Below, piece by piece: positions 8,916 to 52,960 of a stretch of 64,000 bases of DNA. Position 1 is the stretch's first letter. The number at the start of each line of letters is the position of its first letter. The notes under the pieces are model-generated. The model saw only the letters and a list, made by a program, of their open reading frames with translations, searched no databases and had not been told where the DNA came from. Origin of the DNA: Candidatus Bipolaricaulota bacterium (GTDB taxonomy: Bacteria; Patescibacteriota; Patescibacteriia; UBA11705; DATKZF01); NCBI GenBank assembly GCA_035528115.1, contig DATKZF010000001.1, positions 92,508 to 156,507 on the forward strand, written 5' to 3'. A program made the translations under genes and the position numbers.

Positions 8916-9887
8916 ATGAAAAAATCCAATCTAAAATGGATCTTGCTCGCGGTCGCGGTTATCATCGCCGCCGCCTTGATTTATTTTTTGGCGATCAAGG
9001 GAGTTTATAAAAAAGAAATTTACGAAAATTCGCGCTATCAGTACAGCTTGAATTATCCCGCGGATTGGACTTTGGGAGCGGAGGAGACAAATAACGCGGG
9101 CAGGGAAATATTTTCACCGGATAAAAAGGTTTATTGCTATGTTTACGGTTTTGAAAATGCGTTGGTAAACGACAACGGCGAGCCGCAGACGATCGATGAA
9201 TTTTCTGATTGGCTGGTCACGGCTTCCAAAGAGTTATCGACCGAGGAAGAGCCGATAAATCTGTTGACCAGAGAAGCGACAAAGCTCGACGGTTGGCCGG
9301 CAATGAAAATGTCGTTTGACGAAGGCGCGATTGTCAGAGAGGCTGTTTATACTCTGGGCAAAAGCACCGGATTGGGATTCTTTTGCGTCTATCCGACCCG
9401 AGATGATCAAACGCAATACGGAAAAGATTTCGAAAAGATGTATAAAAGTATTGCTATCAAATCAGATTTGGACGGCGCGGGAACAAACGCCATCAGCTGC
9501 GCCAATCTGCTCGGCGGCGCGACCACCCCGTTAAAGGGCAAGGAAGTTTTTTACGATACCGCCTACACCGAGGTTACCATGACCGGCCGCGAGGACTGGG
9601 ATCAAGATCGTTTGCCCTTGCAGGTGGTACAGCTGGAGCCGGCCGGATATGAGTGTTATCCGATGCCGTTTGAATTCTCGGATTCTTCGCCGGACGACGT
9701 GAACGCCCAGCCCGAAGTCACCAAAGTGGAATGGACGTGTGAATTGCCGTATGAGGAGTGGGGATACGTGGCGTTCGATGATGAAAATGAAAAAGCCGCG
9801 CAGGAGAAAGAAGGACTTGTTTGCAAGCAAGACAACTGCATGGATGAAAATTCCGCGCTGACGTCAATTTGGTTTTGTTCCAAATAA
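8916..9887 (+). CDS. Hypothetical secreted/membrane-anchored protein
   Basis: Signal-anchor N-terminus, Cys-rich C-terminal region, no recognisable motif. Confidence 0.6.
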   Translation: MKKSNLKWILLAVAVIIAAALIYFLAIKGVYKKEIYENSRYQYSLNYPADWTLGAEETNNAGREIFSPDKKVYCYVYGFENALVNDNGEPQTIDEFSDWLVTASKELSTEEEPINLLTREATKLDGWPAMKMSFDEGAIVREAVYTLGKSTGLGFFCVYPTRDDQTQYGKDFEKMYKSIAIKSDLDGAGTNAISCANLLGGATTPLKGKEVFYDTAYTEVTMTGREDWDQDRLPLQVVQLEPAGYECYPMPFEFSDSSPDDVNAQPEVTKVEWTCELPYEEWGYVAFDDENEKAAQEKEGLVCKQDNCMDENSALTSIWFCSK

Positions 9888-9890
9888 AAT

Positions 9891-9950
9891 GTTACGAATT
9901 ACAATATTCTTAAGCATAAAGCTACAAATGGATGTAATTTGTAAGAATAT
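9891..9950 (+). repeat. MITE-like repeat, short form (R1)
   Basis: GTTACGAATTACAA, then attcttaagcataaagctacaa, then gatgtaatttgtaagaatat. Lies between two convergent genes. Confidence 0.6.
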
Positions 9951-17454: not shown

Positions 17455-17460
17455 AGCGGA

Positions 17461-17594
17461 GTTACGAATTACAAGATTCTAGTTGGATTTTAGGTAATTT
17501 GTTACTAATTACAAGATTCTTAGGCATAAAGCTATAAGTTCATGTATTTCGTAACAACCGCTTGGAAGCTAAATAGAAGAATGTAATTCGTAAC
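17461..17594 (+). repeat. MITE-like repeat, 134-bp form (R2)
   Basis: GTTACGAATTACAA at the 5' end and AATGTAATTCGTAAC at the 3' end. The internal blocks (attcttaggcataaagctataa, aaccgcttggaagctaa) are shared with R7. Confidence 0.7.
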
Positions 17595-17661
17595 AGTAAT
17601 ATCCACTTTTGAGGACATAAATATTTTTTTATGTCTTTTTTTGTGCTATAATTTTAACAAT

Positions 17662-17791: not shown

Positions 17792-18628
17792 ATGAGCAAA
17801 ACAAAAAACGGCAAAGCCAAGCTATCGGCTTTGTGGCAGACTTTATTAACCTTTGCCTTGGCGCAAGTGGTGTCTCTTGTTACAGCCATTGTTATTTGGC
17901 AAGAACAAGACTTCACTCCAATAACCATGCCCGTTCCTTGGTACACTTTCGTTTTGTCTTTTTCGATTGCCACACTTTTCGTGCTTTTGGCCATAAAATA
18001 CCTTAAAGGCGGCAGGTTCTTCATCTTGTTTTTTTACTTACTGGTGGCCATCGGAGCCATGGAAGTTTTTAGCTCCTTTTTGATTTCCGAATTGGCTTTG
18101 CTGTGCGTTTTAATAATTTTGATAATCAGATTGTCAGCCCCCAGCATTTGGATTCATAATCTCGCCATTATTGTGGGCTTGGCCGGAATTTCAGCTTCGA
18201 TCGGCAAGGATTTGACGCCAATGGGAGTCATCGTGATTTTGATTGTCTTATCGGTTTACGATTACATCGCCGTATATAAAACTAAAACGATGGTAAAAAT
18301 GTTCAAAGGGCTTTTATCCAGAGGCGTGATATTTTCAATTATCATTCCCGAGCATGTTAAAAATTGGACAGTGCCCTTGCAGAAGGTCAGGCAAGGTGAA
18401 GGCTTTATGTTTTTGGGCACCGGAGATATTGCTTTGCCCATGATTTTCGCGGCCAGCGTCTTGCCGGAAGGCCTGATAGCTTCCTTGGGCGTGATCATCG
18501 GTTCGCTTGTCGGAGTTTTGTGCATCCACTTGATTTTCAACATACAAAAGAAACGCGCGCCCATGCCAGCTCTGCCTCCGATAGCGTTCTTTTCGATTTT
18601 GGGATATCTAATTTCCATGTTTATATAA
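17792..18628 (+). CDS. Presenilin / signal-peptide-peptidase-like intramembrane aspartyl protease (A22 family)
   Basis: Polytopic membrane protein with YD (SVYDYIAV), GxGD (FLGTGDIALP) and PAL (MPALPP) motifs in the canonical order and spacing. Confidence 0.6.
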   Translation: MSKTKNGKAKLSALWQTLLTFALAQVVSLVTAIVIWQEQDFTPITMPVPWYTFVLSFSIATLFVLLAIKYLKGGRFFILFFYLLVAIGAMEVFSSFLISELALLCVLIILIIRLSAPSIWIHNLAIIVGLAGISASIGKDLTPMGVIVILIVLSVYDYIAVYKTKTMVKMFKGLLSRGVIFSIIIPEHVKNWTVPLQKVRQGEGFMFLGTGDIALPMIFAASVLPEGLIASLGVIIGSLVGVLCIHLIFNIQKKRAPMPALPPIAFFSILGYLISMFI

Positions 18629-18631
18629 CTT

Positions 18632-19522
18632 ATGTGGGTATTTTTAGCGATACTTGGTTATTTGTTTTTTTCGATCGGAAATATTATAGATAAACTTGTT
18701 TTGACAAAGATAAAGAGAGCCACGGAATACGCTTTGTCGGTGGGAGTTTTCGGCAGTCTCGGCCTGTTGTTTGTTTTTTTCGGATTTGTTTGGCCGAGCG
18801 AACCCATAATTTTACTGGGTATTTTGGTCGGAGCCTTATACATTTTCGCGTTAATACCTTATTACAAAGCGATTCAACTGGGCCAGGCCAGCAGGGTGGC
18901 CTCGTTCATCGGCGGCTTGATACCGGTGGTTGTTTTAATCTTAACTACGCTGAGCGGCCTTGAACTTCTGACAACCAGGCAGTATTTCGCCTTTTTCTTG
19001 ATTTTGGGAGGCAGTTTCTTGATCTTTTACCATTTGCCGCGAGGCAAAAAATCCAAAACTTCGATTCTGTGGGCGCTGCTTAGCGCGACGGCTCTTGGTT
19101 GCTTTTATTTTTTGTCCAAATTTATTTTTCTTGAAACGGGGTTTGTTTCGGGCTTTGTGATCATGAGAGTCGGAGGAATATTGGCCAGCGTGTCGCTAAT
19201 GTTCTTTCCGCATGTGTTGTCCGATATTTTAAAGGATTATAAAAACAGAAGACGTGAGACCACCAAAGACAAAGCCTTTCTGGTTTTATTGGCGCAATCT
19301 TTGGCCGCGGCCGGATTCGTTTCGGTCAGTTATGCCGTAGCCATCGGCAAGGTCGCCTTGGTTAATGCCATGGCCGGAGCGCAATATGTGTTTTTGTTGA
19401 TCTTGGCGGTTTTATTGGCTAAAAAATTCCCGCAATTAAAAGAACAGGTCGGCAAGGAAGTCGTTATTCAAAAAATAATCGCCATAGTCATAATCATTAC
19501 CGGATTGATTCTAATCATTTGA
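18632..19522 (+). CDS. EamA/DMT-superfamily-like membrane transporter
   Basis: About 10 TM segments with two-repeat architecture. Translationally coupled to its neighbours. Confidence 0.5.
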   Translation: MWVFLAILGYLFFSIGNIIDKLVLTKIKRATEYALSVGVFGSLGLLFVFFGFVWPSEPIILLGILVGALYIFALIPYYKAIQLGQASRVASFIGGLIPVVVLILTTLSGLELLTTRQYFAFFLILGGSFLIFYHLPRGKKSKTSILWALLSATALGCFYFLSKFIFLETGFVSGFVIMRVGGILASVSLMFFPHVLSDILKDYKNRRRETTKDKAFLVLLAQSLAAAGFVSVSYAVAIGKVALVNAMAGAQYVFLLILAVLLAKKFPQLKEQVGKEVVIQKIIAIVIIITGLILII

Positions 19523-20616: not shown

Positions 20617-20772
20617 ATGAATATTTCATCAAAGAAATGCGCGGTTTGCGGCAAAGAAAGTAATAATCTCATTGAAAAACATGAGCAGGTTTTTTGCGGT
20701 CAGGAATGTTTGAATAAATTCGAAGAGCAACTCAAAGAGCTGGAAGGCATGTCGCTTGACGATTGCTGTTAA
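20617..20772 (+). CDS. 51-aa zinc-binding small protein
   Basis: MNISSKKCAVCGKESNN...FCGQEC...DDCC. Below the ORF-track length cutoff. Confidence 0.5.
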   Translation: MNISSKKCAVCGKESNNLIEKHEQVFCGQECLNKFEEQLKELEGMSLDDCC

Positions 20773-20807
20773 TTAAAAAATCCGGTCAGCGTGGCTGAAA
20801 CCGGATT
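20773..20807. terminator. Bidirectional intrinsic terminator
   Basis: AATCCGGT-cagcgtggctgaa-ACCGGATT with an A-run on the + side and a T-run on the - side. Confidence 0.6.
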
Positions 20808-20825
20808 CGTGGCGGCTATCGAGCC

Positions 20826-21029
20826 TCAGTGGAAATTGGTTTCCCTGATGATTTCTTGCCACTGCTCGAGAGTGGCAAAGGCTCGAGCGGTACGGTCTCT
20901 CCTTCCTCCCGGTCCATCGATGAAGTATCCGACGGACACGCGCAACTTGCTTACGGGAACCTTGTCTCCGCGCAAGCGTCCCAACACCACCTGTTTGTGC
21001 TGTTCGAAGGGATCATTCGGATTGGCCAT
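20826..21029 (-). CDS. GC-rich 67-aa hypothetical protein (MANPNDPFEQHKQ...)
   Basis: Preceded on the minus strand by AGGAGG and a TTGACA-N17-TAATAT promoter (21080..21108). Composition is strongly GC-rich relative to its neighbours. Confidence 0.4.
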   Translation of the reverse strand: MANPNDPFEQHKQVVLGRLRGDKVPVSKLRVSVGYFIDGPGGRRDRTARAFATLEQWQEIIRETNFH

Positions 21030-21079
21030 CCCCGCTTCCTCCTGTTGTCTCACACCAATAAAGGCAATTAGACAAAAAA

Positions 21080-21108
21080 ATATTAACATTAGAAAATCAG
21101 TTTGTCAA
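21080..21108 (-). promoter_or_regulatory. Consensus sigma70 promoter on the minus strand
   Basis: Reverse complement reads TTGACA aactgattttctaatgt TAATAT. Confidence 0.45.
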
Positions 21109-21123
21109 ACATAGTTTTGCTTT

Positions 21124-21588
21124 ATGGATCTAAAAATCCCAATCAATAATTGGCAAAGTGAAGACTCAACCGGAAAACCGTTTGATTTTTTTGATTGGCA
21201 AGGCGATGATTTCGCTCTTATAGTATTTTTTCGGGGCAAATTCTGCGGGTTGTGCCGAAAGTTTTTAATGAAATTAGGCGATGAGCGCGAATTTTTTAAA
21301 AAACACAAGGTAAAGATAACTGCGGTTTCTCCGGATTCCAGATTGGCCGCGGCCGTGCTTAAAACTTTTTTGCGGCTTGATTTCCCCAATTTAATCGACC
21401 CTGATTTTAAGGTGTCCGAGCTGTTCGGCGTTCCCAAAGAAGAAAAGAATCAAGCGAAATATTTAATCCCTTCGGTATTTTTAATCAATCCCAAGCATGA
21501 AATCGTCTGGGCGAAAAAAGGCGATAATTATGACGATTTTATCGAAATGAATGAAATGATGGCTAAAATAAAAGAAAATTTGGATTAA
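21124..21588 (+). CDS. Thioredoxin-fold redoxin (AhpC/TSA-like)
   Basis: FCGLC CxxC motif in a redoxin context. Confidence 0.65.
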   Translation: MDLKIPINNWQSEDSTGKPFDFFDWQGDDFALIVFFRGKFCGLCRKFLMKLGDEREFFKKHKVKITAVSPDSRLAAAVLKTFLRLDFPNLIDPDFKVSELFGVPKEEKNQAKYLIPSVFLINPKHEIVWAKKGDNYDDFIEMNEMMAKIKENLD

Positions 21589-23743: not shown

Positions 23744-23997
23744 GTTACGAATTACAATAATCCGTTAGGCCGATTAATATATTTTACAAATTACATTCAC
23801 CTATAGCTTTAAGCCTGAGAATCTTGTAATTCGTAACAGATAACCTAAAAGCTTAATAGAATATTGTAATTAGTAACAAATTACTCATTACTATTTACTG
23901 ATCACTGAATTTATAAATTTGTAACCATTAGTAACGATTTATTAAACCAAAAATTAAGGCTAGTATAATAGCCGCAATAATTCGTAACGTGTAACGT
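23744..23997 (+). repeat. MITE-like repeat, composite (R3)
   Basis: A 94-bp unit (23744-23837) with perfect 14-bp TIRs GTTACGAATTACAA/TTGTAATTCGTAAC, followed by degenerate half-sites. It abuts the ATG at 23998. Confidence 0.7.
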
Positions 23998-28861: not shown

Positions 28862-29086
28862 ATGTGGGACATTGATCCGTCGGGAACCGCGCTCAACAGA
28901 GAAGGCATGCTGGTGGCCATTGCGCTGGCCATCTTCGTTGTCGTCATCTACCTCGTCGTGAGAGGAGTCCTGATTCGACGAGAACTGCGGTACCTGGAGG
29001 AGCTCAGAAGAAACAGCGACCCACCCAGTACTGATGAACCGACTCCAATCACGGAATTGGGGGGAGACGGGGAGAAAAATGCTTGA
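28862..29086 (+). CDS. 74-aa single-TM peptide (P1)
   Basis: GC-rich ORF with a hydrophobic core (VAIALAIFVVVIYLVV) and an acidic/Pro C-tail. Strong SD. Confidence 0.4.
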   Translation: MWDIDPSGTALNREGMLVAIALAIFVVVIYLVVRGVLIRRELRYLEELRRNSDPPSTDEPTPITELGGDGEKNA

Positions 29087-29225
29087 TATCCTTTGGTTTC
29101 TCAATGACAAGCAGGCCGCGCTCCTCGTGGGCTTCGGCGGCTTGATCATCGCGTACTGCTGCATCTACTTTCTGTTTGCGACTGGAGCGAAAAAAAGCAC
29201 CTCGCAAGGTTGTCCGAGAAAGTGA
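29079..29225 (+). CDS. 48-aa single-TM peptide (P2)
   Basis: MLDILWFLNDKQAALLVGFGGLIIAYCCIYFLF... Its ATG overlaps the P1 stop, and a GGGGAG SD precedes it. Confidence 0.35.
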   Translation: MLDILWFLNDKQAALLVGFGGLIIAYCCIYFLFATGAKKSTSQGCPRK

Positions 29226-30456: not shown

Positions 30457-30482
30457 ACTTCCATTATACTCTTAAATTAGCT

Positions 30483-30530
30483 GTTACGAATTACAATCTT
30501 CTCAGGCTATGAAAATATTGGATAGCCAAA
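30483..30530 (+). repeat. MITE-like repeat, short form (R4)
   Basis: GTTACGAATTACAA, then tcttctcaggctatgaaaatattggatagcc (a 6-bp-stem hairpin). Lies between fmt and def. Confidence 0.6.
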
Positions 30531-41192: not shown

Positions 41193-41197
41193 AATTC

Positions 41198-41331
41198 GTT
41201 ACGAATTACAGTCATCTTTTAGGCTTTCAGGTTATTTGTTACAAATTACAATCTTCTCAGGCATAAAGCTATAAATGAACGTACTTCGCAACAACCGCAT
41301 AGAAGCTAACCGGAAGAATGTAATTTGTAAC
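41198..41331 (+). repeat. MITE-like repeat, 134-bp form (R7)
   Basis: GTTACGAATTACA at the 5' end and AATGTAATTTGTAAC at the 3' end, collinear with R2. It abuts the GC-rich islet. Confidence 0.7.
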
Positions 41332-41348
41332 TTTTTTAAAATACTGAA

Positions 41349-41378
41349 CCCGCGAAGAATGACCTCGCGGGTTTTTGG
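41349..41378. terminator. Bidirectional terminator
   Basis: ACCCGCGA-agaatgacc-TCGCGGGT followed by TTTTT. Confidence 0.5.
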
Positions 41379-41413
41379 GTAGGATTTGGGGGTGGGTGAG
41401 TTACCGGTGGGAA

Positions 41414-42733
41414 CTACTTGCCGCCGTTCACGAGCTTCAGGCGCACGCGGACGGAGCCGGAAGCGACCTCGGAAGCCGCGCGCTGGAGCTTTCGCTCGTT
41501 CGCGCGCTGGAAGCGATTCCACAGCCAGCTCAGCGTGGTGCTGAGAGGCTGAGCCTCCGCCTCAACCTCGATCCTGCTTCCATCGCGGAAGCGAGAATCC
41601 TTGAGGCCGGACTTTCTGGCCAGCGCCACGGCCATGGAGGCCTCGCTCGAGTGGAGGAGAACGACCCGATCCTTGTCCTTGACCTTGAAGGTCATGACGA
41701 GAATCGGGCAGACGTCCATGCCCGCAATGGCGTCCGGGTGAGGGCCGAAACCGGTCGGGAACAAGCCGCTTTCGACGCAGAAGGCAACGATCTCCTTCCA
41801 GTCGAACACCGGCCATTCCACCCGATCGCTCGGGTGTGCGAACCTCTCGGTCTCCGAGTTTTCGAAGACCTCCTTGAGCCGCCGCATGAGCTCGAACGGC
41901 TCGAAGTTCAGCGGGTCGCTCGACTCGAGGCGAGCGACCACCTTCGCCGTCTTCTCCTGACGCTTCTTGTCGCGGCCGGCCATGTGCTTGGCCAGCCGGA
42001 ACAGATCGGCCGCTCCGTCCTCGAGGCGGTCGAAGACCAGATCCTTTCGGACCTGGCAGATCGCCACCGCGTTCAAGCGGCCGAGGATGGCGAATCCGGG
42101 CCGTCCGGTCGCCCGCGACACGAGAGCGAAGTCGCGCTCGCTCTTGTCGAGCGCGAGCGCTTTGGCGCGCTCGGCCAACCTTTCGGGGTTGAGCTTGCCC
42201 TTGCCGACGATGTCGTCGCCGAGAGCCTCGGTCATGGCTTCGGCCGAGAGGAACTTCCCCTCGCCGGAAATAGCCGCCTTGACCTGCTCCTGCCGAGCGG
42301 CCCAGGCCAGAGGGTTGATGAGCGGTACGATCTGCCGCTGATCGATCTTGGCCTGACGGCTAATGCCCAGCCGTCGCGCCTCTTCCTTGTCGCGCGCGGC
42401 CAGCACCGCGGCCGCGCACTTGCGGTGGTAGATGTCGCCCTCGCCCTTGACAACGAAGGCTTCTGACACGGAGATGACACCTGTCATTTCCGCCTTCCGG
42501 CACACTCTGCAGTGCACCTTCAGCTTGTCTAGGGGGAGCGAGACCTTGCGGTCATCAACTCCCGACTTTATTAGGTGGGTGATCTGGTCCGGGCCGGAAA
42601 TGGTCGTCTTGCCTTCCTCGCCGATGAAGGTCACCGGCAGGATCTCGTTGTTCCCGTTCTTGACCGCCACGGTCGTGCCGTGGAATGCGATCACCTGGGC
42701 CACAGTCTTCAATTCCTTAGTCGCCATGATCAT
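41414..42733 (-). CDS. GC-rich 439-aa hypothetical protein (foreign-looking)
   Basis: Marked GC enrichment across 41340-42830 between AT-rich flanks. Composition is protein-like (K/E/A/R-rich), and AAGGAGC precedes an ATGATCATG start. The antisense ORF 41375..42466 looks like a GC-shadow ORF. Confidence 0.55.
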   Translation of the reverse strand: MIMATKELKTVAQVIAFHGTTVAVKNGNNEILPVTFIGEEGKTTISGPDQITHLIKSGVDDRKVSLPLDKLKVHCRVCRKAEMTGVISVSEAFVVKGEGDIYHRKCAAAVLAARDKEEARRLGISRQAKIDQRQIVPLINPLAWAARQEQVKAAISGEGKFLSAEAMTEALGDDIVGKGKLNPERLAERAKALALDKSERDFALVSRATGRPGFAILGRLNAVAICQVRKDLVFDRLEDGAADLFRLAKHMAGRDKKRQEKTAKVVARLESSDPLNFEPFELMRRLKEVFENSETERFAHPSDRVEWPVFDWKEIVAFCVESGLFPTGFGPHPDAIAGMDVCPILVMTFKVKDKDRVVLLHSSEASMAVALARKSGLKDSRFRDGSRIEVEAEAQPLSTTLSWLWNRFQRANERKLQRAASEVASGSVRVRLKLVNGGK

Positions 42734-42989
42734 GCTCCTTGCCCGACCTCGCGGGCTTTTCTGGGTGTTCTCGAATCTGGCCGATCTTGCGATCGGATTA
42801 CTCGCGCTTTAATGCTTGCTTAGCGGAACTTTTTGGCAATATACTAAATAATCGTTCGGCTTTTTCGCCGAATCGAACATTAAATAATATCACATTTTAC
42901 TCAAAAAGTCAATATAGTGCTTATTTTTAAGCTAATTTTAGCGAATTTTAAAAACATTTCATTTAATCAACCGATTTTAACAGCTAAAA

Positions 42990-43018
42990 TTGACAGCGGG
43001 GGATAGCTGGCTTATAAT
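42990..43018 (+). promoter_or_regulatory. Consensus sigma70 promoter TTGACA-N17-TATAAT for gltX
   Basis: ttgacagcgggggatagctggcttataat. Confidence 0.55.
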
Positions 43019-43046
43019 TATAAACAAGTGTTTATAGCTTAAAATT

Positions 43047-45947: not shown

Positions 45948-45955
45948 TAAAATGA

Positions 45956-46229
45956 TTCAGCCGTCCACTTGTTAGCAGACGGCTGAAAATGTCGTAGAGT
46001 CCGACCAAGATCTGCCATCACTCGATGGCTTCACTCAGTCGGCGCCGCCGGGTCACTCGGTCAGGTCGCGTCGCGCTGGCCGTCACGATGCCGTCGTCGA
46101 GGCACAGACATTTGGAACCGTATGCCGAAACAGCGACTCACTGGGAACCCTCCATGGCTTTCCTCCTTGCCATGTGAGTTTTAGACACCCTCGCACACCT
46201 TTGTGCAAGAGATCCAAAGAAAAGAACTG
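45956..46229 (-). ncRNA. Candidate structured RNA or leader transcript (unclassified)
   Basis: Bounded by the minus-strand promoter at 46236-46263 and the hairpin TCAGCCGTC...GACGGCTGA (45957-45986). GC-rich with several 6-bp hairpins. No ORF of 60 aa or more. Confidence 0.3.
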
Positions 46230-46235
46230 ACAACA

Positions 46236-46263
46236 TTATAGCAAATATTTATATATTGTCAAT
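46236..46263 (-). promoter_or_regulatory. Consensus sigma70 promoter (TTGACA-N16-TATAAT), near-palindromic and possibly bidirectional
   Basis: Reverse complement reads ttgacaatatataaatatttgctataat. The plus strand reads CTGACA-N17-TATATA. Confidence 0.5.
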
Positions 46264-46338
46264 AGCCAGAAGGCATTATTGATGTTTTTTATCTTATTTT
46301 AGACAAAAAATCAAAATTCATCCATTACATTTAAAATT

Positions 46339-46556
46339 AAAAAACCGTCCGCTCAAGAGCAACGGACGGTCAGGTTGTGGGCGCCACTTGGTGGACGCCG
46401 GTTGCCGGTTTCGGAGCTCTCCCGAGAGACGCTCCAGCCCAACGGACAGGACCAGAACCAGCACATCGAGCTATCTTTCGCTCTTCCAACCTAACGCTAG
46501 TCCATTTTTTTGGCCAACAGCTGAAGCGTTAGGGCGCTTGCGAATTAGCTCGATGG
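46339..46556 (-). ncRNA. Candidate structured RNA of about 215 nt (unclassified)
   Basis: Runs from the minus-strand promoter TTGACG-N17-TATTAT (46561-46590) to the terminator CCGTCCG...CGGACGG plus U-run (46339-46370). Long-range pairing CATCGAGCTA...TAGCTCGATG, and GC-rich hairpins. Confidence 0.35.
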
Positions 46557-46560
46557 CATA

Positions 46561-46590
46561 ATAATATCAAACATCGTAAAACCCGTCAAG
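46561..46590 (-). promoter_or_regulatory. Sigma70-like promoter TTGACG-N17-TATTAT
   Basis: Reverse complement reads ttgacgggttttacgatgtttgatattat. Confidence 0.5.
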
Positions 46591-52801: not shown

Positions 52802-52960
52802 GTTATGAATTACAATCATCTAGTAGGCCGATGAATATATGTTACAAATTACATTCATCCATGGCTTTAAGCCTGAGAATCTTGTAATACGTAACAAATT
52901 ACCTAAAAACTAAATGGACGCTTGTAATTCGTAACACTTTACCCATTACCCTTTACTAAT
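52802..52960 (+). repeat. MITE-like repeat, composite (R9)
   Basis: A 94-bp unit (52802-52895) with GTTATGAATTACAA/TTGTAATACGTAAC, about 85% identical to the R3 unit, plus an extra TIR copy CTTGTAATTCGTAAC at 52921-52935. Confidence 0.7.

Follow-up and report, generated by a model that had tools for sequence, protein, structure and literature searches.

The laterally acquired orphan open reading frames (ORFans) of bacterial genomes are thought to be largely phage-derived, and the cassettes of integrons normally lack a promoter and terminate at an attC site carrying RYYYAAC/GTTRRRY cores. In phage genomes, a moron is recognized as extra DNA relative to related genomes, with deviating GC content and its own promoter and terminator (PMC3594210), and T4-type phages have mobile promoter-stem-loop regulatory cassettes that shuffle small novel open reading frames (ORFs) (PMC2839356). 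Here we describe a small minus-strand unit (21108-20775) in a 64,000-nt stretch of contig DATKZF010000001.1, called the window throughout, from a metagenome-assembled genome (MAG) labeled Candidatus Bipolaricaulota. The unit encodes a protein of 67 amino acids (aa), and we consider it quite likely that it is a monocistronic, self-sufficient gene cassette that was gained by horizontal transfer and inserted antisense in the short gap separating a zinc-ribbon gene from a redoxin gene.

Like the morons of HK97/HK022-type phages, the cassette is absent from relatives, in which the two flanking genes are separated by -14, 2, 70 and 120 bp; its GC content deviates from that of its neighbors, it places one small gene between two adjacent genes and it has what appear to be its own promoter and terminator. 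Unlike morons, it lies outside a phage or prophage, and its flanks are conserved cellular genes found in the same order in five genomes. Judged from its sequence, the cassette would therefore work like a moron but is not filed as one. The T4-type cassettes share with it a small ORF with promoter and stem-loop signals inserted between conserved genes, but they belong to phage genomes and have repeated regulatory sequences that serve as recombination sites, whereas no repeat of the signals of the window cassette was seen in the window or at related loci. As with lateral ORFans, the 67-aa gene is short, compositionally atypical and lineage-specific, with few homologues and with relatives in phage-like DNA; unlike them, it belongs to a definable, if tiny, family that has invariant residues and whose fold is predicted with confidence. 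An integron cassette would also be a discrete unit with a single small gene and a hairpin-forming 3' end, but this reading was rejected because the window unit has its own predicted promoter and, as judged by eye, its 3' hairpin lacks RYYYAAC/GTTRRRY cores. Interpretation as a prophage remnant was likewise set aside on anatomy, and a miniature inverted-repeat transposable element (MITE) or insertion sequence appears less likely on the same grounds.

Anatomy and composition of the unit

The preliminary description of this locus had placed a TTGACA-N17-TAATAT promoter on the minus strand at 21080-21108, and this sigma-70-type promoter is present, with an extended -10 element as well: the -35 box TTGACA (21108-21103) is separated by a 17-nt spacer from TGnTAATAT (21088-21080), in which TAATAT itself occupies 21085-21080 with TGn ahead of it. 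In a promoter scan, which gives a sequence-level prediction, it scored 10/12 matches plus the TG before the -10 box, with a predicted transcription start at ~21073. The predicted 5' leader of ~44 nt (21030-21073, minus strand) holds a small 5' hairpin, whose fold z score of -0.4 is not significant, followed by the Shine-Dalgarno sequence AGGAGG at 21043-21038. Both AGGAGG and the ATG at 21029 are as originally reported, but their spacing is 8 nt rather than 6 nt. The coding sequence (20826-21029, minus strand, stop codon counted in, with TGA at 20828-20826) translates exactly as given before into the 67-aa protein MANPNDPFEQHKQVVLGRLRGDKVPVSKLRVSVGYFIDGPGGRRDRTARAFATLEQWQEIIRETNFH, which contains the stretch MANPNDPFEQHK... 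and which NCBI annotates from an upstream GTG as a 75-aa hypothetical protein (HUT21880.1).

The hairpin-plus-U-run terminator was found essentially where it had been described, at 20775-20808 on the minus strand. Its interrupted hairpin (8+5 pairs; 20808-20778), GAAUCCGG-UU-UCAGC-CAC-GCUGA-CCGGAUUU, is followed by a U6 run (T6 in the DNA; 20780-20775), which the last three pairs use. On the minus strand the region folds at -21 kcal/mol (z = -4.3), and no U-tract follows the hairpin when it is read on the plus strand.

The cassette fills a 351-bp spacer between two plus-strand genes. To its left lies a 51-aa zinc-ribbon gene (20617-20772) that is kept in relatives and was ancestrally adjacent to the AhpC/TSA-redoxin gene; the latter (21124-21588), now to the right, is followed by queA, and only 16 bp separate its ATG from the -35 box of the cassette.

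The base composition of this stretch is atypical, although less extreme than first described. The GC content of the 67-aa coding sequence is 54.9% compared to a window mean of 41.3%, and 150-200-nt windows across the cassette peak at 57-59%, so that the reported GC enrichment is real but moderate; it is not the highest in the window, where a richer patch at 41.3-42.8 kb reaches up to 70%. At third codon positions (GC3) the coding sequence has 43/68 G or C (0.63), whereas the value for 43 host genes is 0.469 (P = 0.005, binomial test). GC at codon positions 1, 2 and 3 is 0.59/0.43/0.63 in the coding sequence and 0.45/0.31/0.47 in the host, the same pattern shifted upward, and the AT-rich promoter part of the cassette merges into host-like sequence. 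The view of the locus as a compact, self-contained unit with atypical composition thus holds, and on its sequence features the 67-aa gene is real and probably expressed.

The protein family and the neighbors of its members

A word-indexed search of 5.8e9 proteins with the single 67-aa sequence returned only the gene itself, and, with a profile search added, such k-mer-prefiltered comparisons returned the gene and two relatives, nothing more. Exhaustive phmmer comparison to 1.84e9 cluster representatives recovered three true relatives that align over nearly the full length at 33-42% identity: P0124 (113 aa in the call and 97 aa under translation table 11; E = 7.6e-5), P0125 (151 aa with two tandem domain copies; E = 1.1e-4) and P0126 (68 aa; E = 3.0e-4), from contigs of 28%, 49% and 44% GC. 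The two top non-self matches, P0122 and P0123, were discarded as low-complexity repeat proteins. No DNA similarity was found between the window cassette and the contigs of P0124-P0126. The possibility raised in the preliminary description that the ORF shows no conservation at all was therefore not borne out, since remote protein homologues exist. The P0124 call itself (L008 137-478, on the 28% GC contig) reads through a TGA at which table 11 stops after 97 aa, which suggests either that the organism uses genetic code 4 or 25 or that the call is wrong.

The family motif is hL-x-G-x-x-V-x4-L-x-V-[AS]-V-G-Y-F-x2-G-x-G ... W-x2-[LI][LI]-x-[DE]-T-G-R. For a scan of metagenomes, its gap-free core was back-translated to a degenerate 54-nt pattern, which matched the window once (0 expected) and a metagenome collection 21 times. 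Six-frame hmmsearch identified five of these 21 as real members (L015, L018, L023, L029 and L030; E = 1e-9 to 1e-13), here called subfamily 2, and the remaining 16 were rejected as chance matches, many of which fall in hydrophobic segments resembling membrane proteins. Because the pattern itself fixes the core motif, we scored the flanks alone as a control: the five members ranked 1st-5th on the C-terminal part and 1st-4th on the N-terminal part, where L030 ranked 11th. Alignment of subfamily 1, which contains the window protein and P0124-P0126, to subfamily 2 with hhalign gave a probability of 98.8% over 59 columns. In IMG/VR, the 54-nt pattern had a single match, judged to be chance, and a second pattern built for subfamily 2 had none.

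An alignment of ten sequences (A3) delimits a domain of ~60 aa with eight invariant columns (L19, G21, V24, L29, V33, F36, G41 and T64) and three that are nearly so (H11, G34 and Y35); G41, T64 and H11 fall outside the 54-nt search pattern. When all six frames of the window were searched (hmmsearch) with the A3 profile, in which the query is included, the only match was the 67-aa ORF (E = 2.4e-25), and no second family copy was found. Searches of Pfam, NCBIfam, PHROGs and PADLOC assigned 0 families to the window protein and gave no match above threshold for any member; matches below threshold were confined to one member each (DUF5925, E = 0.022; PTS_IIA, E = 0.07; carph-isopro, E = 0.17) or, for phrog_2920 (E = 0.006), to the N-terminal extension of L018. 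A profile search of PDB sequences found no match. The family is small and rare, with ~10 members in >15 billion predicted proteins plus the metagenome scan.

From the single sequence, AlphaFold predicted an alpha/beta topology with a predicted local distance difference test score (pLDDT) of 61, and a Foldseek search with this model was uninformative. With a 5-sequence alignment, the prediction rose to a pLDDT of 81.8 and a predicted template modeling score (pTM) of 0.67, and in this confident model the product is a four-helix domain (helices at 7-19, 26-37, 42-51 and 54-64). Foldseek comparison of the better model found nothing significant in the PDB (best E = 2, TM < 0.47) or in BFVD (best E = 0.7); TetR N-terminal domains and sigma region 4 are among the best PDB matches, all with E of at least 2 and TM < 0.47. 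The window protein carries a net charge of +3, whereas P0126 and the members of subfamily 2 are clearly negative, and this variation argues against a conserved nucleic-acid-binding surface; a protein-binding accessory role is weakly favored over a conserved DNA-binding role. The tandem domain copies of P0125 suggest that the single-domain members act as dimers.

The genomic neighbors of the subfamily-2 genes include a Phage_L5_gp82/phrog_586 protein (E = 1e-14) and a Methyltransf_24/phrog_2675 enzyme; the neighbors in L023 also include an HNH endonuclease (phrog_1271), and those in L030 a hexapeptide-repeat phrog_7964 protein (E = 3e-33). The genes for tRNA-Asp and tRNA-Glu flank the family gene in L015 and L029, and in these two contigs and L023 a conserved, Cys-containing ORF of ~61 aa that ends in ..TD[YF]S.W lies ahead of it. 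Based on this gene content, subfamily 2 resides in phage-like DNA. Between the two tRNA genes, the family ORF has no stop codon of its own and runs 19 nt into tRNA-Glu (ORF and tRNA at 1671-1934 and 1916-1990 in L015, and at 533-952 and 934-1008 in L029), so that 5' processing of the tRNA would remove the stop codon. This read-in yields a C-terminal tail, [FL]PSS[ST]G, that is shared by L015 and L029, and the same tail occurs in L023 (711-995), where no tRNA was called. Within subfamily 1, AGGAGG precedes the start codon in L007 and L009, and L007 has a TTGACA box upstream, yet the scan calls no promoter there.

Origin of the cassette and competing explanations

If its signals act as they read, RNA polymerase would start at the extended -10 promoter at ~21073, the ~44-nt leader would offer a strong AGGAGG to the ribosome, the 67-aa protein would then be made, and the hairpin with its U6 run would end transcription just short of the stop codon of the convergent zinc-ribbon gene. 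Since the subfamily-2 genes are placed among tRNA genes on phage-like contigs, the window gene is most likely a phage-derived, moron-like passenger that is now fixed in a cellular chromosome. A benefit to the host, for example interference with phage infection, would be speculative. As a side effect, the insertion would have split a zinc-ribbon/redoxin pair that was probably co-transcribed, leaving the redoxin gene to be read via the cassette in antisense or from a weak promoter-like site on the plus strand (21069-21097).

Several observations weigh against this account. The promoter, Shine-Dalgarno sequence and terminator of the gene are consensus matches, read from sequence. The closest relatives, P0124-P0126 of subfamily 1, are not demonstrably phage-borne: their contexts span 692-1336 bp, too short to classify, and the neighbor in L007 is phosphoribosyltransferase-like. 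When flanks were scored alone, just two of the five subfamily-2 members were individually significant (L030 and L015; E = 3-4e-4), and the ~10 known members lie mostly on contigs of 0.7-2.7 kb, which makes for thin context. Searches of GenBank phages and PLSDB plasmids with tblastn found no family member, nor did the pattern scans of IMG/VR. The four-helix model was built on 5 sequences, the single-sequence model having had another topology, and the structural and family searches gave no functional match.

The alternative that survives best, though we regard it as unlikely, is that foreign (phage) DNA was inserted here and persists as a neutral relic, unexpressed or functionless in the host. 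Consistent with a relic, the unit is seen in a single genome, its composition has not been ameliorated, and the window contains neither a second copy nor a partner ORF of the ~61-aa type that accompanies phage-like members. On the other hand, the reading frame is open and all eight family-invariant residues are intact, as are the promoter (10/12 + TGn), Shine-Dalgarno sequence and terminator, which are correctly spaced, a combination that would be rare in 300 bp of unselected debris.

The boundaries of the insert offer one possible lead. An imperfect 11-nt direct repeat, without strand, has its left copy, ATTAAAAAATC, at 20772-20782 and its right copy, ATTAGAAAATC, at 21088-21098; the copies are 316 bp apart and identical at 10/11 positions, and the right one falls inside the promoter spacer. 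Shuffling of the boundary zones, which were delimited after the repeat had been noticed, gave a match of at least 10/11 in 1.6% of cases, and the repeat may represent a target-site duplication or chance. In the former case, the -35 box would come from the host and the -10 box from the insert. The cassette is not bracketed by inverted repeats, and no other copy of it or of its signals turned up in the window or at related loci. A bolder picture would combine these elements into a minimal self-expressing mobile gene that passes between phages and Patescibacteria of the Candidate Phyla Radiation (CPR), with an 11-bp duplication (ATTARAAAATC) in AT-rich spacers, and that encodes a four-helix factor in phage-host conflict tied to phage tRNA regions; we consider this picture improbable.

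A further explanation holds that the cassette is a structured small RNA or dual-function RNA, in which the ORF is incidental and which acts as an antisense regulator of zinc-ribbon/redoxin read-through. Such a role would be compatible with the fold z of -4.4 over the 306-nt promoter-to-terminator stretch, with the antisense orientation of the cassette relative to any zinc-ribbon-to-redoxin read-through transcript and with the presence, at 45.95-46.59 kb, of two GC-rich units of similar size that run from promoter to terminator without an ORF. However, z drops to -1.8 for the coding sequence alone, so that the excess folding stems mainly from the terminator. No Rfam match was obtained at E <= 10 for window positions 20700-21200; at the gathering threshold, the whole window yielded none except one tRNA, and ARAGORN found no tmRNA (transfer-messenger RNA). 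A known structured RNA (tmRNA, 6S, signal recognition particle RNA, RNase P or riboswitch) was rejected on these empty searches and on the drop in z without the terminator. The strong, properly spaced Shine-Dalgarno sequence and the coding periodicity also speak against an RNA gene, as do full-length protein homologues that keep the invariant residues. Because these remote homologues occur in contigs of very different GC content and show no DNA similarity to the cassette, conservation lies in the protein rather than in the DNA; the cassette is a protein gene and not an RNA, and a regulatory RNA with an incidental ORF is hardly probable.

The remaining explanations concern the locus itself, which the preliminary description had proposed to compare across relatives for presence or absence. 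The best non-self queA matches (62-66% identity) are all from Patescibacteria/CPR, and the conserved gene order comprises SPP, EamA, glycoside hydrolase, (DUF389), a zinc ribbon of 51-52 aa, AhpC/redoxin, queA, SpoU and AMMECR1. Because both the nearest named queA relatives and the genomes sharing this order are Patescibacteria/CPR, the NCBI label Candidatus Bipolaricaulota of the source MAG is probably a taxonomic mis-assignment. A contig scan with the redoxin protein found only a 27%-identical match from Cyclobacteriaceae, of no use for synteny. In four syntenic relatives, the zinc-ribbon-to-redoxin spacer measures 120 bp and is AT-rich (L002/L032, GCA_049319825.1), -14 bp (L003, Ga0309772_1000015), 70 bp (L006/L033, Ga0248667_100066) or 2 bp (L035, a further outgroup with queA identity of 55%), and all four lack the 67-aa ORF and a GC-rich spacer at the locus. 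This comparison favors insertion.

Could the gene instead be ancestral to the locus and lost in the relatives? In a matrix of queA identities, the first three relatives are 70-79% identical to one another and form a clade, to which the window sequence (63-66%) is an outgroup, so their shared absence could reflect a single loss and does not by itself polarize the event. The two genes are, however, also adjacent in the outgroup L035, and adjacency is therefore the ancestral state, to which the 351-bp spacer and its ORF were added. Gain in the window lineage also fits the atypical GC and GC3, both far above those of host genes, and the family is otherwise sporadic and partly found in phage-like DNA; we thus regard ancestral presence followed by loss as very improbable. 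Least credible, to the point of being negligible, is an assembly chimera in which a foreign read cluster was mis-joined into the contig: the source is a MAG and neither the 75-aa nor an 87-aa form of the protein was recovered in a contig look-up, but the unit is complete, is placed precisely with an intact stop codon on one side and an intact start codon on the other within a contig of 267 kb, and blends with host-like sequence in its AT-rich promoter part.

Other units of the window and their initiation signals

The preliminary description had suggested that the cassette and an islet at 28.7 kb may belong to a single class of inserted mini-genes, a grouping that we do not uphold. The islet (28862-29225) consists of two overlapping single-pass membrane ORFs with their own promoter and Shine-Dalgarno sequence, directly after a Wzy_C (O-antigen ligase-like) gene. 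The first encodes 74 aa (28862-29086), and the second, of 48 aa (MLDILW...), overlaps its 3' end at ~29.08-29.23 kb; neither peptide is related to the 67-aa protein. After the same Wzy_C gene, L032 encodes membrane peptides of 74 and 58 aa (18431-18818), with TTGACT-17-TAATAT and GGGAGG upstream, and the sequence similarity between the two pairs is weak and confined to the membrane segment. Given this positional analogue, the islet unit is ancestral in position rather than a recent insertion. What the cassette and the islet share is general architecture only, namely an own promoter, a leader and a strong Shine-Dalgarno sequence; the recurrent layout was correctly recognized, but neither shared ancestry nor a shared mechanism of insertion is supported.

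This architecture stands out because ordinary host genes lack Shine-Dalgarno sequences: a 5-mer was found in 0/47 of them and a 4-mer in 2/47, and in several a TATAAT-like box lies only a few nt ahead of the ATG. These sequence features suggest that initiation in the host is leaderless or independent of Shine-Dalgarno pairing. A leader with a strong Shine-Dalgarno sequence is found in the 67-aa gene, the membrane-peptide pair and a 439-aa ORF on the minus strand (41414-42733); the few genes led by such a sequence are small, free-standing units.

The 439-aa ORF, with 65-70% GC, lies in an island of 1.85 kb (41193-43046) that reaches up to 70-74% GC in a 41% GC genome. Its own promoter (TTGACT-17-TGnTATTAT, 42912-42884) is followed by a long leader and AAGGAG, and a hairpin terminator lies at 41373-41347. 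Searches with its product returned no Pfam or GenBank-phage match, a marginal PHROG match (E = 0.025) and a faint eRF1-like PDB match (E = 0.28), and the island may be another foreign autonomous unit.

Two adjacent GC-rich units (0.61-0.63) on the minus strand, at 45950-46262 and 46336-46589, contain no ORF longer than ~50 aa. Both have near-perfect extended -10 promoters (46262-46235, with 12/12 matches, and 46589-46561) and strong terminators (45987-45956 and 46371-46343), which delimit lengths of ~270 and ~210 nt with fold z of -3.5 and -4.5. Rfam gave no match to either unit, and by their sequence signals they are candidate novel small RNAs.

The window also contains a dispersed, AT-rich intergenic repeat of ~65-140 bp built from GTTACGAATTACAAGATTCT units, the copies of which are 77-82% identical. 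They lie at 41193-41335, 17456-17598, 23785-23890 (reverse complement), 52836-52940 (reverse complement) and 9885-9950, with shorter pieces at 30482-30507 and 23744-23798, and the zinc-ribbon-to-redoxin spacer of L002 is built from similar TTACAAGATT / TTTACGAGAT units. The repeat may be an element of the repetitive extragenic palindromic (REP) or MITE type, or a shared regulatory module.

Lateral acquisition of orphan small genes is a common event, and as one such gene the cassette is no major surprise. On the account that we favor, a phage-derived passenger gained by horizontal transfer, it would show that a streamlined Patescibacteria genome can take up a whole mini-gene of foreign appearance and retain it within a conserved row of housekeeping genes. 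The VGYF...TGR family to which its product belongs was previously unnamed and unannotated, and is a candidate for a new domain-of-unknown-function entry and for small-protein or phage-host studies. More broadly, the presence of small, leadered units with strong Shine-Dalgarno sequences against a gene set free of them may bear on how translation initiation is partitioned in this lineage.

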